Shown here piece after piece: positions 1 to 54,453 of a stretch of DNA of 64,000 bases. The translations under genes were made by a program, and so were the position numbers. The notes under the pieces are model-generated. The model did not search any database and was not told the origin of the DNA. It was given only the letters and a program-made list of their open reading frames with translations. The DNA is from Yuukianura sp. NJ FZ-2021 (taxonomy: Eukaryota), in the NCBI GenBank assembly GCA_046563655.1, contig CM102286.1, forward strand, positions 1,240,001 through 1,304,000. The letters are read 5' to 3'. How positions within the stretch are numbered: position 1 is the stretch's first letter; each line of letters opens with the position of its first letter.

Positions 1-1331
1 GCCACAAGCCATTATTTGCATTTCCGCTACACCCTGTGTAAACCACAATGAATTTTGGCAAATTTTAAAATGAATTTAAAAAACTTACTACAACCTAAAA
101 CACTTACAGTTCTTGGTGTTTTTGGTTCTAGATTTCCAAAATTTGTTTGACAGTGTTGTAGGTCAGTCGTTTTTCGAAATCCGTACAACTTCCACCCGGT
201 TTCGCACAAACGCAGCAACTCCCAAAAATGTTCGGTTTCCTAAAAAAAGAAACTTGTTTTAAATGCCGACAGACTAGGGAAAATCATAATGCAGCAAACT
301 ACTTTCGCTACTTAATAACTGCGTTTTATCTAACTGGGTGACGAGTCGGTTTCACTTCATTTTCATAAGGGCGCCAACTTGTCGGAATTCCATTTTTGAA
401 CTCCTGCGCAACCTGTTGACTTATCCAGTCGAAATCGTGCTCAACCGGAGTGTGACCAGGATCTTTGAGCCAAGCGTCGTAGTTCCAGGACTCCAGGAAA
501 TCATCATGTTGAGCCATACCACTGCGTTTGAATCGCAAAGTGTGGTCGACATACACTGGATTATGTTGAGATTCAGTTGGAAATACAATGTGTTGCATGT
601 CATAGGTCACCGGACACTGCCCAAGTATTGACCTCTCCTGGACAGAGTATTGCTGTGAAGTAGGATGTGCTTGAGTGATGCTGTTGGCACTTTCTGAAGC
701 AGTGTTTGAATTTCCCAAGAAAGTGAACCTAGAAACTTGTGTTTTCTTTAAATTCAAAGCCCATTCGGGTAAGTTTGCTTGAACTTTCATAGAAACCGGT
801 TGACCCAAACCATCCATCGTCACCTCCATCGGAGATTCAAGAAAACTTCGGATTCTGTCCGACATTTTCAACTCTCGATTCGCTCCATTCCGTTTTTGAT
901 ACTCGAATATCCGAAAGTCTTGAGGCTAAGAATAAAAAACAGTTTTCCATAATTTATTAGAAATTTAGAAAATACTAAACATTCAAGCTTTTTAGTTTAA
1001 AAAGTCAAATGTCACTGACTTGTATGAGCAGCATGTTCTTCCCAACTGCCGTGACTTTTAGAAAATACTGCGCAGACGCTGTTTCTTCAATGCTATCATT
1101 CGGGAATCCAGGCGGCGACATGAAAGAATTGACGTCGCCATGTACTGCATAAGTGTACATCCGACCAAGGGCAAAGGAATTAGTTTGTGCTTCAGCGACA
1201 TTGAAGCTGTGCGCGTCTGAAATAACAAATTCAAAATTATTCTTACGGAATAGTTTAGACTTCTTGAACTTTTTGAAAATACAAAAAATATGCAACTTGC
1301 AAATGAAACAGAACACGATGAACTCCCGCAT
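1..1331 (-). CDS. Vitellogenin-N::BBE-like oxidase fusion gene, copy A (5' part only; runs off the window edge)
   Basis: Near-identical to 4219-5558. ATG at 1331 (MREFIVFCFI); exons approx. 1331-1301, 1216-1020, 925-335, 239-108, 33-<1. Motifs FALGRMYTY, PEWALNLKK, ERSILGQCPVTY and KTTDLQHC resemble the Vitellogenin_N beta-barrel. The oxidase part would lie outside the window. Confidence 0.75.
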
Positions 1332-2227
1332 TCTCGAATAGAGTAGAACAAAAATCAGCACAAACATCAACTTTTTATTTGTAAAACTCTTGAATGCGAA
1401 GCGAAGTGAAAATAGGAACTGATTTTGGTTCGGGGATTCTGCACACCAACTTATCCTTACTTAGTTTTCAATTTGAAACCTAGCCAAAATGTTCCTTTCG
1501 GTTTCACCTTACAGTGAAAAATTTAACACATTTGGCAATTAAAAAATACAAATCGAAAGCTTGTACTAATTACCAGAAAAAATGTTTATTTTTATGTTCA
1601 TGTAACGAAAGGAACAAAGTGAAAAGAATAGAAATTAACTTACGGAAAAGTCCATCAGTAAATCAAAAAATAACACAAAACTGATATCCATCCAAAAATT
1701 TCTTTAAAATTGGATTACGTACTACACAAATATTAGGCAAAATCTAACCCATGAATCATATGTGAAACGAATCGTATCATCTTCAAAGTGCTCAAGCGTG
1801 CAAACTACGTTAAGAGAGAGATTTTTCACACTTTTTAGTTTTTTGGTAAAATCATTTTTGTAGTTATTAATTTTGTAATTTGGAAGTACACAAAAAATCA
1901 TAATGAATGCCTGTGTGTTGTTACGCTTATAGATCAGAGGTCAGTAACCCCAATCCGTTGAAATTGAAAAAAAAAATACGCAGAACTACATCTGAAGATT
2001 GAGCTTTTCATTTCATTTTTTTTTTACTAAGTTTCATGTTTTTGAAAAACAAAGACATAAGTAAAATAGTTCAAAGATTTTTGATTGTTAACAATTTTTG
2101 TTATGCTTAGGAGGGATTTTGACTTAACCTAAAATTGTAATCTTAATCCTAATTCTAAATCTATAAATCTAAAAAACCAAAATTCTAAACTAATCCTAAC
2201 ATAAAATTGTAAACTTTAAATTCTAAA

Positions 2228-5200
2228 CTATCCGTTACTTCGCGTGGAATTGACAGGCAATGAAAGTTGAGTGACAAAATAGTTGGTTGGATCCCATTTC
2301 GTTTTTTGTTGAATCAATCTGTTCAAATTTTGACCGTAATATCGAACATGATTATCCGGGATATCCAAATCAGGACTATTTTGATACGATTCTCCTCCGT
2401 CCATGAATTGAATAGTGTCCCACAGTTCATACAGATATTTCATTCCTTCTTCAACTTGATCAGGATCAGAAGAACCTTCGTAGTTAATCGTAATGACCCA
2501 AAGCGAGTCTCGGTGGACAAAAGCTGTTTCGTTTTTTCGAAATTTTTGAATTGCTCCAATTTCAGTGCCACACAGAATCCAAATATTTCTGTTTGGAATT
2601 CTCTGCAGAACTTGAGCAACTTGTTGTAGTTGAGCCATTGTGAAAAATCTTTTGATAAAAAATGATTTTGCTTTGAAGTAGCGCAGAGCAGCATTTTCTT
2701 TACGCAGACTCTTTAGAAATGCAATTCTCTCGGCGTCTGGTTGTGGACGAAAGGCGCGAGTTCTCAAAACAAGGTCAGCGGGTGACAAAATGCTGGTTTG
2801 ATTTTGAAATGGATTTGGCGGTTTTACGGTAATTGGCGAATTGCCGGTCAAATCTACAAATTGAATGAAATTTGGAAAAGTAGTTGAGGAACTAACTGGT
2901 GGCGGGAAAGTTTCAAACAAGATTTTCAAAAATGTTGAGTTTCCTTTTGGTTGAATCTTGGGATCTTGAATGTGCACAAAGCCAAAGGTAATACCGCCCC
3001 CAACTTCAGGGTTAGATGACACGAGTCCATCTTTAACAAAGAGTTTAACAATGGATTCAACGTTAGAAAATTTTGAAAATGTCATTTTGAAATTCAAATT
3101 TTGAAAAAGTGGAACTTACCGCCTGCGAGGAAAATGTTCACATAAATGGGTTCATTGACCTTGCTCCATCGAATCATATTTTGTAAAGCGAGATACGTTG
3201 GAACAAAATCTTTGACGGCATAACTCAGTCTCACAAAAGTAATTTTCATTTTGGTGGCATCGAATAATTTGAATTTGAATTTCGTCACGATTCCGATGTA
3301 CCCTGGACCACTTCCACGCAGAGCCCAAAACAAATCCGAATTCTCCCGCTCATTTGCCACCACAATTTGGCCACGCCCATCAACCATCTCAAATTCAACG
3401 GCATTGTCAATTGCCAAGCCATAATGTGCTGAGAATAGTCCCACGCCACCACCAATTGCATGACCACCCATCCCCACCGTCAAGCAACTCCCGAGTGGTA
3501 TCCCATAGCCACCATTTTCCCAAAAGTAAGCAAAAACATGCCCCAGCAAAGCTCCCGGCTCCACCAGCCCCACCGCATTGGCCCCACTTCCTTCCACACT
3601 CATTTTCTGCATGTTCCTGAAGTCCACCACGAGAGTGTGGTTGGTGCCCCACCCAATGCTTTCGTAAGAGTGACCACCACTGTTCGGCACAACGTGAATC
3701 CTGGTCTGCAGTCCACATTTGACGGCAGTCGCCACGTCATGCGCAGACGTCGGCAGGAAATAAGCCACTGGGTAAACTTTCTGTTTGCGCAGATTCCATT
3801 GGACGTTGAGGCGATTGTAGCGGTTGGAATTGGAGTCACGTGGAACGAATTTACTGCGCATGACTCCGTTTCTCTCCAAACAGGTTTGATACCATTTGAG
3901 TCGACTAGTTCGCTGAAATGGAAACAAATATTTGTTATAACAAAATTTACATTTTCGAATTATTTTTACCGTTGTTGCATTATGAGTTGGATTTCCGAAG
4001 TTCGGTTTCGGCTTTGTGTAATTTCCAAAATGTAGTCCATGTGTTGCCGGTTTGTAAGTAAAATCGGTTACTTGTTGCACAGGCCCAGGAATTCCGTGAT
4101 ACTGCATCGTTCTGGCATAGCTGATGTCGACTAGCATCATACTGTCTACATCACGCTGCGATCCTTCACGAATCATCTTGTGCGAAATTTCAAGCATGCT
4201 AACATTTTTAGCATGTTTGCCACAAGCCATTATTTGCATTTCCGCTACACCCTGTGTAAAACACAATGAATTTTGGCAAATTTTAAAATGAATTTAAGAA
4301 AACTTACTACAACCTAAACCACTTACAGTTCTTGGTGATGTTGGTTCTAGATTTCCAAAATTTGTTTGACAGTGTTGTAGGTCAGTCGTTTTTCGAAATC
4401 CGTACAACTTCGACCCGGTTTCGCACAAACGCAGCAATTCCCAAAAATTTTCGGTTTCCTAAAACAAGAAACTTGTTTGAAATGCTGACAGACTAGGGAA
4501 AAGCATAATGTACAAACTACTTTCGCTACTTAATAACTGTGTTTTATCTAACTGGGTGACGAGTCGGTTTCACTTCATTTTCATAAGGGTGCCAACTCGT
4601 CGGAATTCCATTTTTGAACTCCTGCGCAACCTGTTGACTTATCCAATCGAAATCGTTCTCAACCGGAGTGTGACCAGGATCTTTGAGCCAAGCGTTGTAG
4701 TTCCAGGACTCGAGGAAATCATCATGTTGAGGCATACCACTGCGTTTGAATCGCAAAGTGTGGTCGACATACACTGGATTATGTTGAGATTCAGTTGGAA
4801 ATACAATGTGTTGCATGTCATAGGTCACCGGACACTGCCCAAGTATTGACCTCTCCTGGACAGAGTATTGCTGTGAAGTAGGATGTGCTTGAGTGATGCT
4901 GTTGGCACTTTCTGAAGCAGTGTTTGAATTTCCCAAGAAAGTGAACCTAGAAACTTGTGTTTTCTTTAAATTCAAAGCCCATTCGGGTAAGTTTGCTTGA
5001 ACTTTCATAGAAACCGGTTGACCCAAACCATCCATCGTCACCTCCATCGGAGATTCAAGAAAACTTCGGATTCTGTCCGACATTTTCAACTCCCGATTCG
5101 CTCCATTCCGTTTTTCATACTCGAATATCCGAAAGTCTTGAGGCTAAGAATAAAAAAAAATAGTTTTCTATCAAAATTTTCAAAGCTCATAAAATTACAA

Positions 5201-5558
5201 AATATTCCAACTTTTTGTGTAAAAAGTCAAATGTCACTGACTTGTATGAGCAGCATGTTCTTCCCAACTGCCGTGACTTTTAGAAAGTACTGCGCAGACG
5301 CAGTTTCTTCCAAGTTGTCACTCGGAAATCCAGGCGGCGACATGAAAGAATTGACGTCGCCATGTACTGCATAAGTATACATCCGACCAAGGGCAAAGGA
5401 ATTCGTCTGTGCTCCAATGCCATTAAAACTCAATGCATCTGAAACAAAAAGTTTGAAATATCTTTTAAAAACTTCTCTAAAACAGTTTAATTACAGAATT
5501 TTGCAATTTTTTGAAATTAAAACTTACAAATGAAACAGAGCACCACAAATTCCCTCAT
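2228..5558 (-). CDS. Secreted fusion protein (~942 aa): signal peptide + vitellogenin/LLTP N-terminal domain + FAD-linked BBE/AA7-like oxidase, copy B (complete)
   Basis: Seven phase-compatible GT-AG exons: 5558-5528, 5438-5242, 5143-4553, 4458-4327, 4251-3970, 3912-3120, 3030-2228 (2829 nt). Oxidase motifs: P.AYFLP.S..DV..AV, SGGHSY (FAD His), GSCLTVGMGGHAIGGG (FAD Cys), NSDLFWALRG, and C-terminal BBE motif YQNSPD...YYGQNLNRL...KTKWDPTNYF. Confidence 0.8.
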
Positions 5559-6631
5559 TGCAGCAGAAAAAAAATAACGCAATTTTAACTTTTCATTTGT
5601 AAAACTCCTCTTTACTGCGAAGTGAAAATTACGAATGATTTGGATTTGAGGATTCTGCAGATCTCCAACTTTTTCTTTTAGTTGGCTGATATTTATTAGT
5701 TTATATTTTGAAACCTAACAAATTTTTCACATAAAGTGAAGAATACAGCAATTAAAAAAAATACACGAATCGAAACCTAACTACCAAAAAAGTTCAATGT
5801 TTAATGTTTGTTCGTGTAACGAAAGGAAGAAAGTGAAGAGAATCGCAATTAACTTAAGGAAAAGTCAATCAGTATACCAAAAAACAACATCCAACGGATT
5901 CACATGAAAAATTTCAAAAAAAAAATACATTACACAAATCCTAGGCAAAATCTAACCGTGAATCATGGGTGAAACGGATCGCATCATCTTCAACAGATCT
6001 TCCTCAGATCACTCTCCTCTCAAGCGTTCAAAATATCTCAAGAGAGAGATTTTGGCCACTTTTTAACTAATTTTTTGGCAAGAGAGAGATCGTTTCTGTA
6101 ATTGTCAATTTTGTAATTTGTAAGAGTTTAGAGTGGATGTCATAAAGTCAAATCCGTTGAGATTTAAAAAAAAATTTAACACTACATTCGGAAATTATTT
6201 TTTGTTTTGTTTTTACTAAACTTCATTCCTCAAAAAACTACGACTTGCTTAAACATAAGTAAAATAGTTTAAACCTATACTTATTTTTGATCGTCAACTT
6301 TTGTTTTGTTAGAAGTAATTTTGCTGCCTAAACTAAAAACTCCAAATTATGTCTTACGGGGCTGTGAAAAACCAAAAATTTGAAACTGAAAAAAACATCA
6401 CGAGTGATTCAGACTGTTTGAATTTAATAGCGAGGTTTAGGATTTCCTTGGGATAAGCACAAAATTAAATAAATAAAACGGGCATTCAAAATAATTAGTT
6501 TCAGAAAAATACTGTTGACAGACAATGATATTTTTTCTTTTTAAAGTTCCCGCTGTTTTCAAAAATGGTGAGTCACGGGAAATCTTTGGTAACAAATGAA
6601 ACAGCATCTCAGCACATTCCACGCAGTGAAG

Positions 6632-7279
6632 TCATAATGCTGCCAGTACTTTTGATTCATGCTGTCCATTTTCCTCCAGTTTCTTGACTGCCAATTCCAA
6701 GTTCAGTAGATGAGGATCCAGTGCTTCAGGGCAAATCTCTCTCATCGCTTCAGCCAACTTGAATAAATACTCTCTGTTCGTTCCACTCACTCCCGAACTT
6801 TCGTAAATTTGGAGCGCCATTTTTGAAATTGACGACGGACCGACAAAGTGCTCATTATCTTCAGATCCAAAGTACATCGTGACACGGAAGGAACGGCCTT
6901 CTCGGACACTTTCGTACAAAGCGTCAAAGTCATCTTCATCTGAACTAATACTTTCGTTGTCCGTGTCTGAAGTGTCACTCCGCGTCTCCTCTTCACTTAT
7001 GAAGCTTCCACGTCCACTGTCGCTGTCATTTTCCATTTCTTCTGCGCGTTTCCTTGACGACGGTGGTTCCAAGTACTCAGTACTTGACTGTATTGCTGCT
7101 GGAATGGAAGAAGAAGAGGCCGGTGAGTCCGTTTCAAAAATATTGAGAGGATGATTTGGAATTGGATGAAATTCGGCTGGCAGTTTTTCGTATCCCATCA
7201 CTTCTCGCATGTCTAAATGCCGTATGACGAAATCCACATCTCTGCTATGAATTTTGTAAACAACGCCCCACACACGGTT
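6632..7279 (-). CDS. CHAC: ChaC alternative distal last exon B (second copy of the C-terminal half of the GGCT domain)
   Basis: Phase-0 acceptor ttgcag| NRVWGVVYKI...HLDMREVMGY...GVSGTNREYLFKLAEAMR...DPHL. No separate WIFGYGSL exon was found between 7280 and 8213. Confidence 0.8.
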   Translation of the reverse strand, partial: NRVWGVVYKIHSRDVDFVIRHLDMREVMGYEKLPAEFHPIPNHPLNIFETDSPASSSSIPAAIQSSTEYLEPPSSRKRAEEMENDSDSGRGSFISEEETRSDTSDTDNESISSDEDDFDALYESVREGRSFRVTMYFGSEDNEHFVGPSSISKMALQIYESSGVSGTNREYLFKLAEAMREICPEALDPHLLNLELAVKKLEENGQHESKVLAAL

Positions 7280-8212
7280 CTGCAATCACAAAATAAAACA
7301 AGTTGTTAAAAAATTGTCATCATCATCAACTTTCATTACAAATTTCATCATCTAAAAAATCTATGACCAAATTCTCAAAATTTTGAATTGCAAAATCAAA
7401 TTCTATTGATTTAAAAATGAATTCCTAACCCGCTATGTCAGCAAGTTTACGTCAATTTCCAGACGACAATTTAGCAATTACTTGCTGTGTCATTCTCAAC
7501 CTTGCACTTTGCTCCTAAAATTAAATCTCAAATTGGTCTTTTCTGTCTCAATTGGTCTCAAATGACCTTTTAAGATACCGAAATGACCAAAACGTCAAGT
7601 GAAATGAGTTTTTCCGCACTTTTTAAGACTTCCACAACCATAGAAAAAAAGATTCGAAAAAACGAAACATGAACATCCTCTGGGACAAAAAGCAATCGCT
7701 TGGCTAAAACGACCGTGCTCTGTACAATGTCGTTAGTCAATGTCAATGTCAAATAAAAAATATAGCATATACATGGCAAAGCCGTTTTTCAGACAGCGCG
7801 TGCCAAATTTTTGCATCTTCGAAGCAACGAAGCAAGTGGAGTTTGGCGGAGTGGAATTAATTGAAATTGGACCTTGGTTTCCAATTTTTGCATGATGACA
7901 TGAAAATGACAAATGGAGTTACATCAATTGATTGTAATTTCCATGTTAATCCATTTACTAAACTGGTTTTTACAACATGATAAGACATCCACTTGGGAAA
8001 TTAAAAATGAAATGACACGAGCTACACTAGAAACCTAACTCACTTTATGTATTTTCGGACACAATAGACGTCATTAACACATTCATTAGTGCTAAACTTG
8101 TCAATTTTCCAAAAACTCGAGTGTTTAGTCAGTTTGTAAACATGGAAATTACCAAAATTTACTCAGCAGGTGGATGTACTATGTACAGACGGACGGACTC
8201 ACTCAATTTTCA

Positions 8213-9723
8213 TTAGTTATCATCACCCTGTCCATCGACAGAACATGATAAAATACTCAACAGTTCCTTTTCAATGGCAAACAAATGTGGATCAGTGACA
8301 TTGGGAAGTTGTGATTTCATAAAGTGGGTCAAGTTAAATAGATATTCCCGATTTGGACCACTCGGACCTTCAGCCTGCGCAATTTGCAATGCAATGTCAT
8401 AGAGTGGAGCAGGACCTAGAAATAGCGGTCCATCAATGTCACCGATGTACAAACTGACAGTAATGGATTCCACGGGAGTCTTTTTGCATTGTACTATGAC
8501 ATCACAAAGATAAGCAGCATTTGAACTTTCGACAGGATCATGTCGGTATCCGGTTTCAGCTTCTTCGGTGTCCTTTGATGCTACTGATGAGCCGGTCGGA
8601 GCGGCTTCATTCTGAGCCTGAACTGGATGGAACAAAGTCTGAGTTTGGCCAAATCTCTTCTCACGCAGATTCAAGGATTGGATCGTTTCAGAGTCAGAGT
8701 CCAAAAGTTCATAGGCAACTCCCCATACTTTGGCCTAGAGTTGCAGAATTAGAATTAACAAAAAAATGGATGACATGACATGGACTCGTGAAACTGCCGA
8801 AGTCTTCAGTCTCTAATTCTCTAATCATTTCAAAACTTTCCTAAACTTTTCAATGAAAAGTTTTCATGTTAAGTCGATACTGCACTACAATTGTCAATTA
8901 TTATCCCTCTGAAGAATGCGACTAATAAGCAGACGAGAACTTCCACTCTACGACGGAAAATTACATCGCAGTCATAATGTCACAGCTTAGAATATACTTT
9001 TCGCGCTGGAGGAAGATAATCAACGGAAAACGTTAAACCACAAGGGCTACCCCAATCGCAAATTGTTAGTGGCAGAACTAAAACCTAAACTAAAATGCCT
9101 ATAAAGTAGACCAAAGTGCTACGAAGTAGGTAGTAATCGGAATCGGGAACGACCTCTGACCACTGACCTCGGATTCTGAACTCTTTTAAGCACGACGTAG
9201 AAACAAAACACTGATACAAAAATAGATCAGGTTCCATTTGAAACTCCAACACCACAACTAAAAAGTTTGCGAGTGCCAAAATCTTTTAGCACGCGTGGAA
9301 CTAACGATATGATGGAAATAAACCTCAGCTTTGTAAACCTAAGCTTATTGTTAATACACAAAAAAAAACGAACATAGAATGGAAATGTACTTTCACTTAC
9401 ATTCGGGTCATCGGATGGAATCAGTGTGACAACTCTGCCTGGCTGTAAATAAAAAAGACAAAAATAGAACACAATGCTAAACTTAATTTCACTTTTAGGT
9501 CGTAAAAACATTCAGGAAGGTTAATTACAATAAGGAAGTAAAAACTAGTGTAACCTTCAATGATTGAAGGAAATTGAACGTAAATTACCTTTTCAGGAAT
9601 TCCACGATGATCGATACTGGCTTGGTAAAATACTCGCTCGTAACCTTTGACATATCCCACTACTTTTTTGATGTAAGGAAAGTCCGCTTTCCACACGAGT
9701 GAACCGTATCCAAATATCCACAT
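8213..9723 (-). CDS. CHAC: ChaC glutathione-specific gamma-glutamylcyclotransferase, isoform using proximal last exon A
   Basis: Exon 9723-9589 [12 protein letters not shown]...[10 protein letters not shown]; exon 9442-9401 [14 protein letters not shown]; exon 8734-8213 [10 protein letters not shown]...LNLREK...[13 protein letters not shown]. Confidence 0.9.
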
Positions 9724-20131: not shown

Positions 20132-20548
20132 TTATGTCTCTTTGGATCCTGTATCTGATTCGGTAGATTTAGAAGCCTTTTGACGTTCAGCATCTAAGCG
20201 AAGTTCTTCATCTAAACGTTCTTTGGCTCTAAACACTTTGGATTGGATATAAAAGGAGCCACCTTTGGCCTTGTCATTGACATTGAATAAATGTTCGTAC
20301 TTCTTTAGCACTTCCTCTGGTTTGGCATCAGGAGAAACGTTAAGAATTTGTCTAGCTTCTTCTAGTGACATTCCGAGGCGCATGTTTTCTGCTGCCGTTC
20401 GACTGTCGACACTGCCTGGACGATTGACGCCTCTTCTACTGGCTGCAGCAGTTTGACTCGCTTGAATTTCTTGCCGAAGAGCTTGAGCAAAAGCTTTCCC
20501 TACTGTTTGAGCTCCAAGAACGATGATTTGAATAAGATACTTCGCCAT
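20132..20548 (-). CDS. PAM16: Mitochondrial import motor subunit Pam16/Tim16 (Magmas)
   Basis: [27 protein letters not shown]...[13 protein letters not shown]...[29 protein letters not shown]; single coding exon. Confidence 0.96.
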
Positions 20549-21608
20549 TAATCGACCTTCGACGAATCACTTCTCATAAACAGCGATCTAGAACAAACCA
20601 AATATAGCGTTAATCACCAAATTAATAATCAATTCGGTGATTCACTTTGATTAACTAGAAGTTCTAGTCCAGAACTTCTGGATCTGGACTAGACTTTTAC
20701 TAAGTATTTTCGTTAATCTAACGTACCTCATCTAAGGTTGATGAATGTTTGTTTACCTAATTTTCTCCAAGTTTTCTAGTTCAGCCAGTTTAACGTTATG
20801 TTGACAGATGCGCTGCGTTTGTCTTTCGTTTTTCGGTTTTCGCTTTACTTGTCAATCGTCTCCTCTTCGTGTTCTTACGTCTTACGTGCAAAACGTAATG
20901 TTCAATTATTAATTGAGGTAATTGTTAAGGTAAGGCTAACCAGAAACTAATATGAAGAGCCGCTATAAGAATTTTATAACCTCTGAATTGAGAGAGACGT
21001 AATGAAAATGATGTAAAATTCCACGAGACTTCTCGCGCACTAAAATTTTCACGTGCTTCATTTCACGTTCGGAAAAACGCAAAATAGCGTGCGGTAAACT
21101 TAGGAAAGTAACGTAAAAATTCTAAAACTGTTTGAGAATTAACTAAACACAACCTTAAAACACTTTCAATATGAACAAATACTTTTATTTCAAACGGGAA
21201 TTGACACGGTATCCGAATCCTGTTAAACTGAAAACATTCCCTACAATAAATTAGGAAAAACATGATAAATAGTGTAAAAATTAGAATGTAAATTTAAAAT
21301 TACTCAATGGTAGTAAGTTGAAAACCGACGTTCTAAACAAACCTAAGTAAAAATCTTGTACAAAAAAAAAGTAAAACACCAAAACGATAACCAGGAATAG
21401 TTCATACTATGTCTGTAAAATCATTGTTCTTTAGGAAAAAGCAGCCTAATCGGTAATAAAAACATGTTAAGGTTGATTTTTGTTTGTATCACGACATGAA
21501 TATTCGATAACAATTAGTTCATTACGAAAAATGTGGATTCTATTATACGCCTGAAATGGTTACCCTGAACATATTCTTAACAATTGAGAGTCTACAAATC
21601 ACAAAGGT

Positions 21609-46200: not shown

Positions 46201-47584
46201 AATAAAATTTTAAAAAGTATGCTGACCAATGTTCTAGATCCAAAATAACCAGTAACTACCGTGTGACGAAACCCCGCTACTCGACCCTGGAGAAACAGCG
46301 TGCAGATTCTCTTGGCCGATCTGCGGTTCCACCAACTGCCGCCGCAATTTCAAGCGACCATTTCCGCCGGAGTACAGAAGATACAAAACGACGGACAAGT
46401 CTTCGGGTGAGAATTTTTTGAAATTTTGAAACCGTTTTCTTAAAATTGTGCATGAGGTTCAAAACGATAAGAGTTTTTGTCATTTGACTTGAACTTTCAA
46501 TTAATGCTGCTACTGTTTGACAATGTGCTGGATGCTGGAACAGGCCTACAGTCATCTCTTTGCCCAAAAGGTCGGACCTTATCACTAAAAATCATCTAAT
46601 TAATCCAATTACTAACTCAAAATCAATGCTTCCTATAAAAACTTAAACTCTCTCTCACTTCTCACCTCATACTAAAGTTCAAAAAAATAAATTATGGCAG
46701 TGCTTCCGTCTGTGCGTGAGTGATTTTGGCCAGTCGCACTTTTTCTGTCTTGTAACTCATTTCAAGTTTATTTTTCAATGCTCAAACTACAAGTAACATG
46801 AACGCTCGCTATTGCCTAACCTAATGCTAACCTCACCTATGCTAACCTTATCCTGCTCAAAACCTAACTTTTTTCGATTTTTTTGAAAAAATTTAATCAA
46901 TTGACTCTTCTTCATTTCCAAAGTTTTCGACCTGGAGGAGCTCACAGGTAAACAACTAACAAAGAACGAGAATCCTGCGTATTGTTTTAAAATTCTAGAA
47001 TCTCTCATGACCTAAAATTTTGAAAAATTTTGAAAATTTTAACATTGAACTGTTGTTTCGTTTTGCAGGGAAGTTTAAGCAGAGCCTTGGGACTCAAAGT
47101 CAAGAGTGATGTCCAGAATCATGGAGAAGCAAAAGCAGAATCCAGAATGACTCCGCCGCCGATACCCGGGTACGCTTCGTCTGGAAAACTGGGATACCTC
47201 CATCAAGGCAGAACACAGTCACTCAATGGCGAAACGTCTCCACTTCACTACAATTCAGCACAGTATCAAAGTCACCCTAACCCCTACTCTGGTCAAGGTC
47301 AAGGTCATTCGGGACTCAAGAAAAGCATGACTAACGCTTCGCATCAACTCGGAGACACTGAAAGTCCTTCCAGGAGCAGTTGCAACAGTAACAGCGAAGA
47401 CATGTCAGAGTCCCAACCACATTTGTCTCAACCTGCCCCGATCCAACCACCGCCACCGCCAGTTGCAAATAGTTCGGAGGTCATCAAGGTCAATGCCCCC
47501 CACAAACATCGCAGAACGACCTCAATTGGGGGAAATCCAACTGACTCAATTCTTGCTCATGTCCCTGTCCATACGCCTGTCTAA
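43223..47584 (+). CDS. KAZN: Kazrin-like protein (coiled coil + three SAM domains), multi-exon
   Basis: AKEAL..LKGDRKRLKAEKFELLNQMKELYATLEDKEKELRDFIRNYEQ; WGSISRVFAR; SAM motifs NVKSGKLLLEL...LHRKKLRLAIEE, WVSSEWLPDIGLPQY, DPLVWTN...GSGVHGA. The start codon is uncertain. Confidence 0.88.
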
Positions 47585-48003
47585 TTCTCAACAAAATTAT
47601 AGACTAAGAGTGAAATTTTGATTTAATGTTCATATCATTCGTAAAGTGAAACGTTTTGCCTGTAAAAATGATATTAAATTAGAAAATAGTTTATGATTTT
47701 AATTTGAAATGGTTAGGATAATAATCTAACCTGGACGATATTTCCCAAATAAACAACTTGTAAGGAAAAAAAAATTGTAGCCTCCCACATTTGGAGAAAA
47801 AAGTTATGTTGTTGGTTTCTGGAGTGCCAATGGATTAATTAACTAATTAATTTATTAATTAAATAACTAATGGTAAGTTAATTAAGTCTGTTAATTAGTT
47901 AATCCATAATCAATTGCAGGTTCAACGACTTCTAGAAAGAAGGAGTGGCGAAATGCTTCGTGAAACTTTCTCATAGTATTTCGAAAGTTGCTTTTCAAGC
48001 GCC

Positions 48004-49359
48004 ATGCATTTCATTCTGTTGAAGGCGAAATTTGTGTTTGTGATGGGTAATTTACTGATGCTGATTAGCATTTTTGTGCCTGTCAGTCTAAGTAGAGCTG
48101 AAAGTTTGAGTAGTGAGGTCACGAGAGGTCAAAGGTCAATGACCTCGAAAACGTGCGAGGTCAAAGTTGCTCTTGTCCTGTGTAGTGAAGACAAAGAAAC
48201 AAAACGGAGAAAAGGTTTTGCCAAACGTTACTGCAAAATAGAGCGACAAATTGACCAGACTTTGGTCCTCATCAAATCGCTGCTCATCACTCTTACGCAA
48301 AATGAGTCCAAGAACTGCATTCACGTAACCATATTTTCAAATCAAAAACAAAATTTTGAAAAAGTGAATGAAACTATTTTTGGTGACAAAAAAAACTGGG
48401 ATCCCAAGTTTACACAAAATCTGAAACTGGATTTCCTTCCTGTCGAATATCCCGCCGGTAAAGTGTTTCAGAAACCTACATTTAGGCTAATTTTAATATT
48501 AACCTAACGTTAGCCTAACTTTTTTTTTCAATGGATTTGCCCAGGTACTTCCTGGATGCGATCACTGGTTCGTCCTTGTACAACTTTTCGAGTATTTCTG
48601 CCCGACGCTTTACCGAATCACGACTCCGTGATTTACGTTGACACGGACTTTATTTTTCTAAGAAGTGTCACTGACCTTTGGGCAGAATTTGGGGCATTTC
48701 GAGACAGCGAGGTCATGGGCATGTCGGAAGTGTGGTTTCGTAACTTCGTCGACCGTCACGTTCCGCATTACGGCCAAAATGGGCTCCAGGCGGGACTGAT
48801 TCTTATGAATTTGACGCGTATTAGATCACTTGATTGGTCTCAAAAAATTAAACAAATTGGAAATGAGTATCGCTCTGAAATTAGCTATGCAGATCAGGTA
48901 AACAAAAAATTTTTTTAAGAAAAACTCTAATACTAATGTAAAACGTAAAATGTTTGAAAATCTGAAAACATGAAATTTTGTTAGGATATGATCAACATTT
49001 ACTTTTCCCAAAATCCGACCGAGGCTCACGTGATTCCATGCGGGTGGAACTTTCGTGCTTTCCAATGTCAACCAAATGCTAGCAACTGCTCTCTGGATGC
49101 TGGCAGTAGTCCTGGAATTTCTGCATTTCATGGAACTGACACCTCCTTTACATCGCAAGGAAATGAACCCATTTTTTATGAAATTTTCAAAACATTCCAA
49201 AAAATTCGACTAACAGCTGCCTTTAACTTGAAAAGTTTCGTCAAAAAATTACAGCGAAACCTTAGTTTTGAAAAACTAACTAAAAACTCTTCATGTAAAA
49301 TGTATCCAGGATTCAAAAAATTGACACTTTCACATCTTGTAAAACAAAGCAAAATGTAG
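48004..49359 (+). CDS. Glucoside xylosyltransferase-like GT8, copy 1
   Basis: Three exons; LVLIKSLL, RPCTTFRVFLP, VIYVDTDFIFL, GLQAGLILMNLTR, DQD, PCGWNFR, FHG. Confidence 0.85.
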
Positions 49360-49806
49360 TCGTCAGTTCGGGCAATTAAAAAATTCTCAACCGTAACTTC
49401 CTCAGTCATGATGACAGACTAAAAATTTCCACAATACTTTTTAAAAACATCATCACACATTCTAGCTTTTAAGCGTATTTCTTTTGGAGGAAATGTTTTT
49501 TTAATTTAGTAAGTCAGTCATCATTATCAAGATTGGACTGGCCCAGGCAACGCCCAAGTAAGCCTCAGTAGCATTCTTGTCACTTCTTATTATTATTTTT
49601 TTGTGTTTAGTTTTTTTTCCAATTGCATTGCTAAAAGTTCAATGACATTTGCAGAAGTTTTTTTTCAGATGTTTAACTAATTAATTGATTTAATTAATTA
49701 ATTAATTGAATGCATTAATACAAATTACAGTCAAATTATTTGGGGCTAAAATATTCGCAACTTCAGTTGAAACTGCAGGTTCTCGTCATCACAAATTCCA
49801 GACGCC

Positions 49807-51140
49807 ATGAAACTTCTCAATTCAAACTGCATTGTCCTGTGTGTAGCTTTAGCCGTTGCGTGCACTACTGTTGGCAGTAGCGAAGAAAATGCTGGTGTTG
49901 GGGTCATCAGAGGTCAAGGGTCAATCACCCCGAATAATTGCAAGATAAAAGTTGTTTCAATTGTTTGCGATAATTTGGATAAAAAGTGTAATAGACGGAG
50001 TGCAAGTAGGAAGAAGCACTACACGAAAACTTTTTGTACTCTGGAGAGACAAATTGATCAAACGCTGGTTTTAATTAAATCGATGCTCATCACCCTCAAC
50101 ACAGGAAACACAAAGATTGATTCTGAGTTATGCATTGACATGACCATTTTTTCAAGTCGAAAACAAATTTTTGAAACGTTGAACAAAACGATTTTTGAAA
50201 GCAACGGAGACTGGGATCCCAAATTTACTCAAAATTTGAAACTGAGTTACAGAGCAATTGAGTATCCTCCGGGTAAGGCAATTTCCAAAAATTTTCGACA
50301 TTCTTAAAAAGTTGTTTTTTTCGAAATCCACAGAAACGGCATGGATGCGTTCGATGTTCCGTCCTTGTGCAACGTTTCGATTGTTCTTGCCCGAAATTTT
50401 AACAAATCACGATTCCGTGATTTACGTTGACACGGATTTCATTTTTTTGAAAAGTGTCAATGACCTTTGGAAAGAATTTGAAAATTTTGGAGACACAAAA
50501 TTGGCGGGAATGTCAGCTGAATGCAAAGGTCTGTATACAAAGTGGGCCAGAATTCCGTACTACGGTGTCAGTGGACTCCAGGGTGGACTGATACTAATGA
50601 ATTTGACCCGCATGAGGTCACTTGGTTGGAATCAGAAAATGCTTGACATTGGAAAGCGCTATCGTTCCAAACTAGTGTTTGCAGATCAGGTACACAATTA
50701 AATATTTTTTCAAAATTTTGAGCCATTTGAATTTTTTTTAACCATTATAATTTTAGGACATCCTCGGAAACTACTTTTTGCAAAACCCATCTCAACTGCA
50801 TGTCACTCCCTGCGCCTGGAACTTCCGTCCATTACAATGTGGCTCAAGATGCGGTGGTTGTCCAATCAAAGGAGGCGTGGCATTTGCACTTCATGGAATC
50901 AATAGCACGTTTTCAGAATTGGGAATAGAACCAGTCATTCGCCAAGTTTTTGAAACTTTTCAAAAAACAAAGCTCACACCGACCTTTGACCTCAAGCGAC
51001 TCACTCAAAAACTAACTCGCAAAGTAAAATTTGAAGTAAAAATGGGAAGCTCTAAATGCGCAAAATTTCCTGGCATAAAGAAACTTTTACTTTGGCAACT
51101 TTCCAACCACAATAAAATTTCAAAGTTCAAAGGAAAGTAA
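49807..51140 (+). CDS. Glucoside xylosyltransferase-like GT8, copy 2
   Basis: Same 3-exon structure; FRPCATFRLFLP, YVDTD, DQDILGNYF, PCAWNFRP, LHG. Confidence 0.85.
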
Positions 51141-51378
51141 AAATACATACACATTTTTAAAAACTTTTCGAAAACCTAACCTATTTGCTTTCCTTCAATG
51201 TTATTGCATTAGTGAAAGGTCCATGACCGTTTACAGACATTTTTTCAGATGTTTAACTACTTGAATTAATTGAATAACCGAATTGACTTAATACAAATTA
51301 CAAACAAATTATCTCGTGTTTTTTTTCTGCAACTTTAGTTGAAACTCCAGCTTCTCTTGGCGACAAATTCCGGACGCC

Positions 51379-52728
51379 ATGAAATTTCTAAATCCAACCT
51401 TCAGACTCTTGTGTGTAACTTTAGCTTTGGCTGTTGCGTACATTGCAGTATGCAGTAGTGACGAAAGTGCTGGTGCTGAGGTCATCGGAGGTCAAGGGTC
51501 AATGACCGCACGTCCTTGTAAGGTCAAAGTTGTATCAATTCTATGTGATAATTTGGATAAAAAGTGCAATAGACGAAGGGTCAGTAGAAAGCACTACACG
51601 AAAACTTTTTGTACACTGGAGAGACAAATTGACCAAACCTTGGTTTTAATTAAATCCGTGCTCATCACACTCAACACAGAAAACACAAAAAATGATCCTG
51701 AGTCATGCATTGACATGACCATATTTTCAAATCAAAAACAAATTTTTGAAAGTTTGAACAAAACGATTTTTGAAAACAAAGGAGATTGGGATCCCAAATT
51801 TACTCAAAATCTGAAACTGAATTACGGAGCAATCGAGTATCCTCCGGGTAATAAAATTTGCAAGATTTTGTAAAATTTTTAAAAATTTACTTTGTTGTTT
51901 TTTTTTTTTTTTTTTGAAATCCGTAGAGACGACATGGATGCGTTCGATGTACCGTCCATGCGCAACGTTTCGATTGTTCTTGCCTGACGTTTTGACAAAT
52001 CACGATTCCGTGATTTACGTTGACACGGATTTCATTTTTTTGAAAAGTGTGAATGACCTTTGGAAAGAATTTGAAAATTTTGGAGACACAAAATTGGCGG
52101 GAATGTCAGCTAAATGTATGGACTTTCATACCAACTACGCCAGAATTCCGTACTACGGTGCCAGTGGACTCCAGGGTGGACTGATACTAATGAATTTGAC
52201 GCGCATGAGGTCAAGTGGTTGGACTCAGAAAGTGATTGACATTGGAAAGCGCTATCGTTCCAAAATACTTTATGCAGATCAGGTACAGAATTTCAAATTT
52301 TTCGTGCATTTCAAACTTTTTTTTTAAAGTTACTAAATTTTTAGGACATCCTCGGAAACTAATTTTTTCAAAATCCATCTCAACTGCATGCAACTCCCTG
52401 CGCCTGGAACTTCCGTCCACGGCAATGTGGCTCAACATGCGGTGGTTGTCCAATCAAAGAAGGCGTGGTATTTGCACTTCATGGAGTTGGTAGCACTTTT
52501 TCAAAATTGGGAATAGAACCAGTCATTCGCCAAGTTTTTGAAACTTTTCAAAAAACAAAGCTCACGCCGACCTTTGACCTCAAGCGACTCACTCAAAAAC
52601 TAACTCGCAAAGTAAAATTTGAAGTAAAAATGGGAAGCTCTAGTTGCGCAAAATTTCCTGGCATAAAGAAACTTTTACTTTGGCAACTTTCCAACCACAA
52701 TAAAATTTCAAAGTTCAAAGGAAAGTAA
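51379..52728 (+). pseudogene. Glucoside xylosyltransferase-like GT8, copy 3, with premature stop
   Basis: Close paralog of copy 2, but exon 3 reads GAC ATC CTC GGA AAC TAA (52360-52362) where copy 2 has TAC. Confidence 0.75.
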
Positions 52729-52999
52729 AAGTAGAAATACAAATATTTAAAAACTTTTCGAAAAAAAATTCCTATGTAATAGAATTTATAAGCTCATTGG
52801 AATAAAAAACAGTTTCAACCATAATTCATTTATGTGAGAATGCAAAATATTAATTAATTAGCTAATTAAGTAATTAATTAGCTAAGCAGTCAATAACCTC
52901 CACAATTTTTTTTGGTTTCCAAATTGATACAAGTGGCACAAACTTTGTCGTTTGTTCAACTCCATCGTCAGTTCAACTTCAAAAATAGAGAAATTGGTC

Positions 53000-54378
53000 A
53001 TGAATCTTCTACGGTCAAAGGTTAAATCTTCCGTTGTTTTCTGTTTTCTTTTGTTCTTTACAATGAGTCTACTCTGTAATTGTACCAACACAAAATTGAT
53101 CAAAAGTCAAAACCCAAATTCTACAAGTTTCCAAAATTTGGAACCAAAAAGTGTCAAATTGTCCAATCCGAGGGACTGCAAAATTAAAATTGTTTCGGTT
53201 TTGTGCAATGACGAAGAATCAATTCGGGAAAAAGGCAAGAAGTTAACAACTTCCAGAAGTTTCAAGAGACAAATTAATCAAGCATTGGTGTTAATTAAGT
53301 CGTTGTTAATTACTTTAAACAAAACTGAAAGTGACTGTATTCACATGACCGTCATGTCCAATGACCAAAAAAATTTTCAAAAATTGTACAAACTCATTTT
53401 TGAACAGCGAGAAAGTTGGGATTCCAAGTTTACGAAACACTTGAAACTCGAATTTCTTCCGTTCCAGTATCCAAATGGTAAGTTTATTTCATCAGCAAAG
53501 CTTTTTAAAAAAAATGTTTTCTTTTTAAATATTTTTTTTTAATTTTGAAAAGGTACCTTGTGGATGCGTTCGCTGTTCCGCCCTTGTGCAACAATTCGAC
53601 TGTTCTTTCCAGAAGTTTTACCACCAACATTTGACTCTGTACTTTACCTTGATACGGATCTAATTTTTCTTAAAAGTGTGACTGACCTTTGGTCACACTT
53701 GAGGTCATTCGAGGTCAACACGACGTTAGCCGCCATGGCACCTTGCCTAGGTCACTACAATACAAAAAGAAACAAAGTTCCATACTACGGTACGACTGGA
53801 CTCAATGATGGCGTTATGCTCATGAACTTGACACTCATGCGCGTGGGAAACTGGACACAAGAAATTATTCAAATTTCGACCCAGTATCGTTCAAAAATTA
53901 GATTCCCAGATCAGGTACAAACGAGCTAAAAATTTAAAAAAGCCTAAAAAAATTTTTGGATTTGACCTTTGACCCTGGATGCATTTCAAGTTTTTGAAAT
54001 TTTTTTTCTGAAATTTTGACCCAGGATGTGCTGAACAGCTATTTTGCAAGATACCCGCATAAATTACACGAACTTCCATGTCATATGAACTTTCGGTATT
54101 TCCAGTGCCGTTCATGGTCGACCTGCAACGACACTGGAAACGGCATTTCTGTTCTGCATGGAAACAACCTCAGTTTTACTCGAAAGGGACCCGATGCTTC
54201 ATTTCACAAAATTTTCAAAACTTTTCAAAAAACGAAACTTTCTGCAAACTTTGACCTCTACCATTTCAGAAAAAGCATTCTCACGGAACTGAATTTGGTC
54301 AAAGAAAGTGGGCGTGGCTTTTGTGCCAAATTTCACGGATTCGACACTTTAGTTCTCAAAGGGCTTCAGAATTCATAA
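53000..54378 (+). CDS. Glucoside xylosyltransferase-like GT8, copy 4
   Basis: LFRPCATIRLFFP, VLYLDTDLIFL, PYYGTTGLNDGVMLMNLT, DQDVLNSYF, LPCHMNFR, VLHGN. Confidence 0.87.
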
Positions 54379-54453
54379 GCACCAAAAGTTGAATAAACTT
54401 TTTCTTTTGAAAAAATATTTTTTATTGATGTGGATTTTTATTTTTTTTTCGTT

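Follow-up and report, generated by a model that had tools for sequence, protein, structure and literature searches.

A probable fusion of a vitellogenin-type beta-barrel with a BBE-type oxidase in Yuukianura sp., and its possible role at the egg

Introduction

A locus in Yuukianura sp. NJ FZ-2021 raises the question of whether part of a vitellogenin and a flavin-dependent oxidase can be encoded as a single secreted protein and, if so, how the two came together and what the first could do for the second. The window considered here is a stretch of 64,000 nucleotides (GCA_046563655.1, contig CM102286.1, positions 1,240,001 to 1,304,000 of the forward strand), and all coordinates given below are positions within it. 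A sequence-only reading had proposed a vitellogenin N-terminal domain fused to an oxidase; we describe the gene model, its tandem copy, the two modules, and the likely origin and function of their combination.

Gene structure

An exon model built independently gives seven exons on the minus strand at 5558..2228, with 2829 nt encoding 942 aa, and bears out the exon number, protein length and end points proposed earlier. Exon 1 (5528..5558) carries the ATG at 5558, encodes residues 1-10 with most of the predicted signal peptide and ends in phase 1, while exon 2 (5242..5438; residues 11-76) supplies the end of that peptide and the first strands of a barrel. Exon 3 (4553..5143; residues 77-273) encodes the vitellogenin-type barrel core, assigned by the Pfam family Vitellogenin_N, and exon 4 (4327..4458; residues 274-317) encodes further strands with two conserved cysteines, assigned by collinear alignment with vitellogenin P0004. 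Exon 5 (3970..4251; residues 318-411) contributes the final strands of the barrel, followed by a linker rich in Pro, Gly and Asn. The oxidase N-terminus and FAD-binding domain, including His492 and Cys554, follow in exon 6 (3120..3912; residues 412-675), and exon 7 (2228..3030; residues 676-942) holds the substrate-binding half and BBE motif, its coding part being 3030-2231 and its stop codon 2230-2228. Upstream of exon 1, on the same strand, lies the presumed promoter region (5559..6124). The four motifs quoted previously, among them FALGRMYTY, PEWALNLKK and KTTDLQHC, are present in exons 2, 3 and 4. A non-conserved loop of exon 3 carries an R-F-K-R site, and a tandem-repeat scan of 1300-6500 returned short, low-scoring arrays only.

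All six introns are GT..AG, are 57-98 nt long and have a GC content of 19-32%, as against 39-49% in the exons. A stop-to-stop frame at 3094..4293 runs uninterrupted through exon 5, intron 5 and exon 6, so the contention that exon 5 and the FAD domain share one open reading frame holds. The true joint between vitellogenin-derived and oxidase sequence is intron 5 (3913..3969, minus strand, read 3969-3913), an in-frame, stop-free, phase-0 intron of 57 nt inside that frame, with GT..AG borders and 19.3% GC.

The N-terminus of the model reaches a best 10-residue Kyte-Doolittle mean of 2.91, and this hydrophobicity, together with alignment to the N-terminus of P0004, points to a signal peptide there. 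In contrast, no signal-peptide-like stretch follows any ATG in 4700-3880, where the best 10-residue value is 1.45; the oxidase thus lacks a start and signal peptide of its own, as had been supposed.

The tandem copy and selective constraint

A second copy of the 5' half, copy B, lies on the minus strand at 1..1886, where it is cut by the window edge. It comprises an upstream flank (1886-1332) and exons at 1331-1301, 1216-1020, 925-335, 239-108 and 33-1, and its frames are open and its splice sites intact, the donor of exon 1 being GC. Its oxidase half falls outside the window, and the entire fusion is therefore seen in copy A only. Aligned over 1957 columns, the two copies are 84% identical in nucleotides; the repeat unit measures 4238 nt, and the repetition extends into the upstream flanks (5559..6124 versus 1332-1886), which are 64.5% identical.

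Exons are 81-89% identical between the copies where the adjoining introns are 52-76% identical; exon 2, for example, is gapless at 88.8%, against 52-76% in its flanking introns. Over exons 1-2 dN is 0.077 and dS 0.378, giving dN/dS of 0.20 with no indels. Further 3' the copies are close to identical, exons at 96-98.5% and introns 3 and 4 at 93-96%, and the dN/dS of 0.47 for exons 3-5, which rests on very few changes, consequently says little about selection.

These observations bear on the proposal that there is no single working gene here, and that a short vitellogenin-like remnant stands beside a leaderless oxidase, or that the locus is a young non-functional chimera or has been mis-modelled. 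Such a reading could draw on the stop that is met after 10 codons if the exon 4 donor is left unspliced, on in-frame ATGs in exon 5, and on the failure to find a fusion orthologue among the relatives and loci searched. However, exon 5, which by homology encodes the final part of the barrel, shares a single open frame with the oxidase, introns 4 and 5 (75 and 57 nt) are too short to accommodate a terminator and a promoter, and both copies have open frames and splice sites. An oxidase started within exon 5 would also have no signal peptide, whereas the related stand-alone oxidase P0010 has one. We therefore regard this proposal as quite improbable, and consider it highly probable that the locus is one fused coding gene.

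Two technical explanations were also weighed and set aside. The introns of the gene and its neighbours, which are ordinary intron-bearing animal genes, rule out contamination or a contig of bacterial or fungal origin, and the position of the joint within one open frame and the duplication of the 5' half in register argue against an assembly chimera.

The oxidase module

Pfam searches were run on the translations of six exons (exons 2 to 7) separately; exon 6 matched FAD_binding_4 (PF01565; 70.1 bits, E 2e-19) and exon 7 matched BBE (PF08031; 44.1 bits, E 2.1e-11). With the exon 3 match described below, the three families predicted for this protein, PF01347, PF01565 and PF08031, are all found and in the right order, exon by exon. 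Homology to stand-alone oxidases begins at residue 413, among the first residues of exon 6, and the alignment with P0010 pairs residues 413-936 of the model with its residues 29-538.

Among solved structures, the best relatives of both oxidase exons are oligosaccharide oxidases such as PpBBE-like 1. Exon 6 matches Physcomitrella PpBBE-like 1 (6eo4; 4.1e-39), a cellobiose oxidase, the Fusarium chitooligosaccharide oxidase (6y0r; 1.6e-34) and the Acremonium glucooligosaccharide oxidase (1zr6; 4.9e-34), and exon 7 again matches PpBBE-like 1 (2.9e-14). These three enzymes have the FAD_binding_4 plus BBE layout in common with the window oxidase and are ~30-40% identical to it in the FAD domain, but they lack an N-terminal barrel. 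The counterparts of His492 and Cys554 in PpBBE-like 1, chitooligosaccharide oxidase and relatives are likewise a His and a Cys, the residues that tether FAD bicovalently, and the columns that are invariant in 10 aligned relatives are retained. Judged from these family and residue matches, residues 413-942 thus make up a complete FAD oxidase of BBE type, akin to the oligosaccharide oxidases, in agreement with the full-length VAO/PCMH-fold enzyme previously suggested. The chitooligosaccharide and glucooligosaccharide oxidases matched by exon 6 are members of CAZy family AA7, and these matches give indirect support for placing the window oxidase in AA7 as well, as does the mention of AA7 genes in Folsomia (PMC5490193). 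The catalytic Asp396 of PpBBE-like 1 aligns with Ile in the window oxidase, and an Asp is missing at this position from the Folsomia oxidases P0009 and P0010 too, so the chemistry of PpBBE-like 1 is not simply transferable and the substrate is not readable from the sequence.

The vitellogenin-type module

In exon 3, Pfam identifies Vitellogenin_N (PF01347) at 31.8 bits (E 7.6e-8, cut-off 24), covering profile positions 68-155 of 590; exons 2, 4 and 5 taken singly gave no family at E <= 1. On a larger scale, hhalign places residues 1-397 collinearly on residues 1-497 of vitellogenin P0004 (probability 99.35%, E 6.1e-21), pairing 4/4 cysteines of the mature N-terminal part with P0004 cysteines, and phmmer matches model residues 7-261 to P0004 residues 4-261. 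A tblastn search with P0004 residues 10-69 finds 5433-5242, where the alignment is interrupted precisely between exons 2 and 3. For exon 3 itself, a HMMER search of 1.84 billion representatives gave six matches, each of them a Vitellogenin_N protein, and the exon 3 profile matches a vitellogenin structure in the PDB (9enr_A, E 2.2e-13). Other searches with exon 3 were less productive: of 143 candidates from a word-index search of longer proteins none reached E <= 0.001, the ESM Atlas returned no usable match, and AlphaFold2 prediction of exon 3 alone, from seven sequences, gave pLDDT 48.1 and pTM 0.32.

The predicted barrel is completed by exons 4 and 5, whose combined local alignment scores z 4.8 against P0004 (a score reached by 3 of 1000 shuffles) and z 5.2 against P0005 (1 of 1000); exons 2, 4 and 5 are assigned by collinear alignment with just two vitellogenins that span the region. 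The exon 5 alignment ends where P0005 aligns with residue ~329 of honey-bee vitellogenin. According to PMC9207902, the honey-bee barrel can be separated from the remaining protein by cleavage at the linker behind it, and the fusion joint maps to the same point.

The helical subdomain, the lipid-binding open beta-sheets and the VWD domain are all absent, and no such family was found by Pfam in any exon. On this evidence the N-terminal part is, by homology, the beta-barrel subdomain only, which covers roughly the first 280 of the 590 positions in the Pfam model, and as read from the domain content it is a barrel-only derivative and not a lipid transfer protein; with the oxidase directly after the barrel, no lipid cavity is possible. 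The Vitellogenin_N-like region of ~400 aa envisaged in the sequence-only reading is thus upheld in its family match and its collinearity with vitellogenin, and Pfam, hhalign and PDB comparisons all lead to that family, but its extent must be narrowed to the barrel, the helical subdomain being missing. Arthropod vitellogenins (P0004, of 2283 aa, and honey-bee 9enr) have the signal peptide, the whole barrel and the cysteines in common with the window protein; where P0004 continues with helical subdomain, open beta-sheets and VWD, the window protein has the oxidase instead.

Relatives and origin of the fusion

The closest relatives of residues 413-942, among the 120 matches listed, are stand-alone springtail oxidases, with which the window oxidase forms one clade at 100% SH-aLRT support. 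The animal itself is probably a springtail, and no branchiopod. P0009, annotated in Folsomia candida as a 'Reticuline oxidase' of 494 aa, is 53% identical across exon 6, and a clade-specific insertion in the substrate domain (exon 7) is common to the window oxidase, P0009 and P0010. These springtail proteins also resemble the window oxidase in their His and Cys residues, but are ~500 aa long, have their own N-terminus and lack any vitellogenin part, whereas the window protein has 942 aa and a barrel. In P0010 (547 aa) an own signal peptide precedes the point that aligns with residue 413. The Folsomia genome paper lists the AA7 class among horizontally acquired genes (PMC5490193), and the oxidase gene is probably foreign and microbial-type.

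No fusion orthologue was found in another species. PF01347 occurs in 0/120 of the oxidase relatives among the matches listed, the same architecture in 0/6 barrel relatives, and pattern searches for relative loci gave 76 pattern matches with exon 3 and 116 with exon 6, none of which was confirmed. A description of a vitellogenin-barrel plus BBE-oxidase architecture was likewise not found in the literature searched. The earlier remark that no description of the architecture was known stands, in that neither a paper nor a second example emerged from the literature and the relatives examined, and within the searched data the domain architecture is new, albeit built from two known families. The precedent that had been offered, branchiopod vitellogenins with a superoxide dismutase domain, is borne out: Daphnia vitellogenins carry a prokaryote-like SOD domain (PMC2678069), and so likewise combine the vitellogenin family with a prokaryote-like redox enzyme. 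In Daphnia, however, a complete vitellogenin bears a small extra domain at its N-terminus, whereas in the window protein only the barrel is present and the enzyme is C-terminal, replacing the lipid-carrying body.

We propose that a stand-alone springtail oxidase gene exchanged the part encoding its signal peptide for the 5' exons of a vitellogenin-like gene, the two being joined at a phase-0 intron, and that the fused unit was duplicated in tandem afterwards. The product would be a secreted two-module protein with a barrel at residues ~20-385 (exons 1-5), a flexible Pro/Gly/Asn-rich linker and the oxidase at 413-942, and its signal peptide would be the vitellogenin-like gene's own.

Considering such an origin, the barrel could be a passive passenger that binds nothing, the fusion having been kept for its promoter and signal peptide. 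In favour of this, what the oxidase lost on fusion is exactly its signal-peptide part, and the N-terminus, signal peptide included, is vitellogenin-derived; yet a mere leader is expected to decay or shrink, and here ~365 barrel residues are retained with a clean end at a natural subdomain boundary, 4/4 cysteines are in place, and exons 1-2 show the low dN/dS of 0.20 and freedom from indels noted above. On balance we hold a passive barrel to be improbable.

Possible functions of the barrel

If the barrel does bind something, the best explanation of the locus as a whole appears to be a barrel–oxidase fusion that serves egg or yolk addressing, a preference that we hold tentatively. The oxidase is predicted to oxidise a sugar or oligosaccharide with release of H2O2, and the barrel would act as an address tag into oocytes or yolk, either taken up by the vitellogenin receptor or attached to vitellogenin itself, such that soil-laid eggs would carry a peroxide-producing antimicrobial enzyme. 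By analogy with other animals, the window barrel may bind the vitellogenin receptor: in work cited in PMC12604960, the receptor-binding segment of tilapia vitellogenin lies inside the barrel, and receptor binding by prawn vitellogenin is ascribed to the beta-sheet region. Addressing of the oxidase to eggs or yolk is, on this analogy, a possibility that we would not yet back with confidence. In a stronger version the barrel is a portable delivery tag, and females would provision their eggs, by way of the receptor or vitellogenin, with a sugar oxidase that was acquired horizontally and produces peroxide; this version is speculative and, in our view, somewhat unlikely.

The same fused gene could serve outside reproduction, with a barrel that binds or oligomerises and so anchors the enzyme to microbes, lipoprotein particles, clots, gut contents or cuticle in an immune or digestive role, and the architecture is equally compatible with this. 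One oxidase relative, P0026, has an additional module, PF00187, beside its oxidase domains, and thus added binding modules do occur in the oxidase family; PF00187 is a chitin-binding domain family. Springtail AA7-class genes have been proposed to assist feeding on plant and fungal polymers (PMC5490193), and in the lamprey dimer contacts are made by the N-terminal domain of vitellogenin (PMC9207902). Against such roles, the partners of the barrel that are documented in PMC12604960 and PMC9207902 are the receptor and vitellogenin itself, and no tissue is indicated by the sequence. Among the options of eggs, particles and microbes that had been raised for addressing, microbe binding would be the weaker, because pathogen-pattern binding in the honey bee is credited, in PMC9207902, to the helical subdomain that is missing here. 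A non-reproductive barrel is accordingly a doubtful reading, but one to be taken seriously.

Significance

Should the gene not be expressed as modelled, it would be a mere curiosity of exon shuffling. As a fusion, it would demonstrate that vitellogenin's receptor-binding barrel can be excised at a natural boundary and reused as a module, and would amount to a natural experiment on the barrel acting alone. It would also be a case in which a probably foreign, microbial-type enzyme gene was domesticated in an animal by gaining host exons, which provided secretion and possibly an address. If egg targeting is true, the protein would represent maternal chemical defence of soil-laid eggs and might be put to use in bringing other proteins into arthropod oocytes, and if the barrel does act as a delivery tag, it would provide the first natural example of this subdomain targeting a protein on its own, apart from the lipid transfer proteins.

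Gene model of the fused locus

The fused gene (copy A) lies on the minus strand at 5558..2228, and its exons, whose boundaries were located on the reverse complement of window positions 5700..2100, run from 5558-5528 (E1) through 5438-5242 (E2), 5143-4553 (E3), 4458-4327 (E4), 4251-3970 (E5) and 3912-3120 (E6) to 3030-2231 (E7), with the stop codon at 2230-2228. Spliced, these seven exons give a frame of 2829 nt encoding 942 aa, matching the length and end points of the sequence-only reading. All introns are GT..AG and 57-98 nt long, with a GC content of 19-32% versus 39-49% in the exons. The same reading had described a single uninterrupted frame across the junction, and both E5 and E6 do lie within the stop-to-stop frame 3094..4293. 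Inside this frame a 57 nt stretch (3969-3913; 19% GC, good splice signals) is taken as intron 5; as it is in frame and stop-free, the reading frame would be intact whether it is spliced out or retained. Computation shows the locus to be one open gene model in which a secretion leader is followed by a complete barrel, a linker and, finally, a complete oxidase that has its flavin-tethering residues; the original observation of a fused vitellogenin-type/oxidase gene is confirmed.

The vitellogenin-type N-terminal part

When the six exon translations E2-E7 were compared with Pfam, E3 matched Vitellogenin_N (31.8 bits, E 7.6e-8, profile positions 68-155 of 590; cut-off 24 bits), and E2, E4 and E5 individually matched no Pfam family at E <= 1. 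A HMMER search of 1.84 billion representatives with E3 returned six proteins at E <= 0.001, all six containing Vitellogenin_N; among them is P0004 (2283 aa), a complete vitellogenin that includes the open beta-sheet and VWD domains. With E3 and the six matches combined in a profile, a search of the PDB found honey-bee vitellogenin (9enr_A, E 2.2e-13).

In the spliced N-terminal part (E1-E5), model residues 7-261 align with P0004 residues 4-261, starting at the signal peptide, and the tblastn match of P0004 to the window is interrupted precisely at the exon 2/3 boundary. E4 and E5 together give weaker but collinear matches to P0004 (local score z 4.8, reached by 3 of 1000 shuffles) and to P0005, another vitellogenin-type relative (z 5.2, reached by 1 of 1000). 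Using hhalign and the six-vitellogenin alignment, model residues 1-397 were matched to P0004 residues 1-497 (probability 99.35%, E 6.1e-21), and all four cysteines of the mature N-terminal part (C180, C285, C303 and C326) fell on P0004 cysteines. The stretch of P0005 matching this part aligns with honey-bee vitellogenin up to approximately residue 329, just after which the bee protein is cleaved at a polyserine linker (PMC9207902). From these alignments the N-terminal part is judged to be the entire barrel subdomain and nothing beyond; it lacks the VWD domain, the lipid cavity and the helical subdomain. Residues ~190-273 form a non-conserved loop between barrel strands, at the place where P0004 and P0005 have a low-complexity insert. 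The loop contains an R-F-K-R dibasic site, common to copies A and B and given as window 4514-4525 (model residues 207-210), which fits the convertase consensus and might be cleaved as such sites in insect vitellogenins are.

The joint and the oxidase

The exon translations of E6 and E7 matched the Pfam families FAD_binding_4 (70.1 bits, E 2e-19) and BBE (44.1 bits, E 2.1e-11), respectively. Stand-alone oxidase relatives can be aligned from the second residue of E6 (model residue 413) onward, and one of them, P0010, has its own signal peptide positioned before this point, which places the seam at intron 5; the oxidase leader appears to have been replaced by the vitellogenin 5' part. No ATG with a hydrophobic leader was found within 4700-3880 (best 10-residue Kyte-Doolittle mean 1.45); the corresponding value at the model N-terminus is 2.91. 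E5 closes with a stretch rich in Pro, Gly and Asn that connects barrel and oxidase. The structural reading made from sequence alone was right overall, with the vitellogenin contribution now narrowed to the barrel subdomain and the joint set at intron 5.

Of the structures in the PDB, those that match the oxidase best belong to PpBBE-like 1, chitooligosaccharide oxidase and glucooligosaccharide oxidase. The His and Cys that tether FAD in these solved enzymes are matched in the alignments by His492 and Cys554, as they are in the relatives. Where PpBBE-like 1 has Asp396, the window oxidase has Ile, so that the substrate is not readable from sequence; Folsomia P0009 ('Reticuline oxidase') and P0010 likewise lack Asp here. 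A further relative, P0008 (486 aa), matches the oxidase in permuted order, C-terminal half first and N-terminal half second, and is probably a gene call that spans a tandem pair of copies on a contig of short length.

Occurrence of the architecture

Among 955 candidates, 121 relatives of E6 (463-2000 aa) were found at E <= 0.001. PF01347 was present in none of the 120 listed, among which the other added domains were PF00187 (one protein), PF10250 (two) and a beta-glucosidase fusion (two). Conversely, none of the six E3 matches has an oxidase domain, and two metagenome locus scans found no relative; these negatives hold for the collections searched, which are thin for animal proteomes and do not contain the window's own protein. 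No published description of a vitellogenin-barrel/oxidase fusion was found in the literature searched. Judged from these comparisons, the fused protein is a new domain architecture made from two known families, seen in one genome.

The listed protein with PF00187 is P0026 (573 aa, metagenome), which carries this binding module beside FAD_binding_4 and BBE, a second such addition to the BBE-type oxidase family.

Tandem duplication and selection

A second copy, B, occupies window 1-1886 (repeat unit 4238 nt, 84% identity to copy A), its oxidase half falling past the window edge. The five exons within view have open frames and keep their splice sites, one of which, the donor of intron 1 after exon 1 (1301-1331), is GC instead of GT; this could reflect either a rare GC-AG intron or the onset of decay. 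Comparison of window 1-1886 with 4219-6124 showed identity climbing 5' to 3', from 64.5% upstream, 52% in intron 1, 89% in exon 2 and 76% in intron 2 to 98.5% in exon 3 and 93-96% in introns 3-4. This climb, which includes the introns from exon 3 onward, looks like the result of gene conversion across the 3' portion of the repeat. Further 5', where the copies have diverged, exons are better conserved than introns and are free of indels, with dN 0.077 and dS 0.378, which is evidence for purifying selection on these barrel exons; across E3-E5 (dN 0.015, dS 0.033) the differences are too few to judge selection.

Genomic neighbours and oxidase ancestry

The flanking genes are intron-bearing animal genes, viz. 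two adjacent ChaC-like (gamma-glutamylcyclotransferase family) ORFs just upstream (6635-7285 and 8216-8734, minus strand), Pam16 (20135-20566), a SAM-domain gene, carbonic anhydrase, eIF-2B, and three glycosyltransferase family 8 ORFs which, together with closely similar frames beside them, make up a tandem array on the plus strand (47000-54400). Among the best 120 of 300 Pam16 matches, the closest named are from two springtails of the genus Orchesella, at 66-67% identity and 179-180 bits; the highest score for a named fly is 148 bits, and two metagenome proteins reach 84-86%.

A quick, unrooted maximum-likelihood tree was built from 60 rows (the window oxidase, P0009-P0059 and eight named lower-ranked matches), omitting the permuted P0008 and the remainder of P0060-P0127. 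The window oxidase falls in a four-row clade (SH-aLRT 100) with P0009 of Folsomia candida and with P0010 and P0011, nested in a larger clade of 13 rows (99) that takes in Bradysia flies and the fungus Conidiobolus; Nocardia and other fungi come next outward. As the tree is unrooted and quick, no donor is inferred. Horizontally acquired genes of the Folsomia genome are rich in CAZymes, the auxiliary-activity ones being mostly AA7, and vitellogenin is unmentioned in the available text of that paper (PMC5490193). On these placements the organism is probably a springtail rather than a branchiopod, and its oxidase half comes from a family for which a foreign origin was suspected before.

Proposed function

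The oxidase would make H2O2 from a sugar or oligosaccharide and the barrel would supply its address, possibly delivering it to oocytes or yolk via the vitellogenin receptor or by docking on vitellogenin. The nearest precedent comes from Daphnia, where vitellogenins bear a SOD domain of prokaryote-like type and retain the whole vitellogenin (PMC2678069), of which the window fusion keeps only the barrel. The honey-bee barrel is a naturally separable unit (PMC9207902). Microbe binding is the other address to consider, but in the bee pathogen-pattern binding is credited to the helical subdomain (PMC9207902), which the fusion lacks. The receptor-binding segment of tilapia vitellogenin has been located in the barrel, and that of the prawn protein in a beta-sheet region (both cited in PMC12604960). 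Since the tilapia barrel holds the receptor-binding segment and the helical subdomain is missing from the fusion, delivery to oocytes or yolk is favoured over microbe binding as the putative role of the fused protein.
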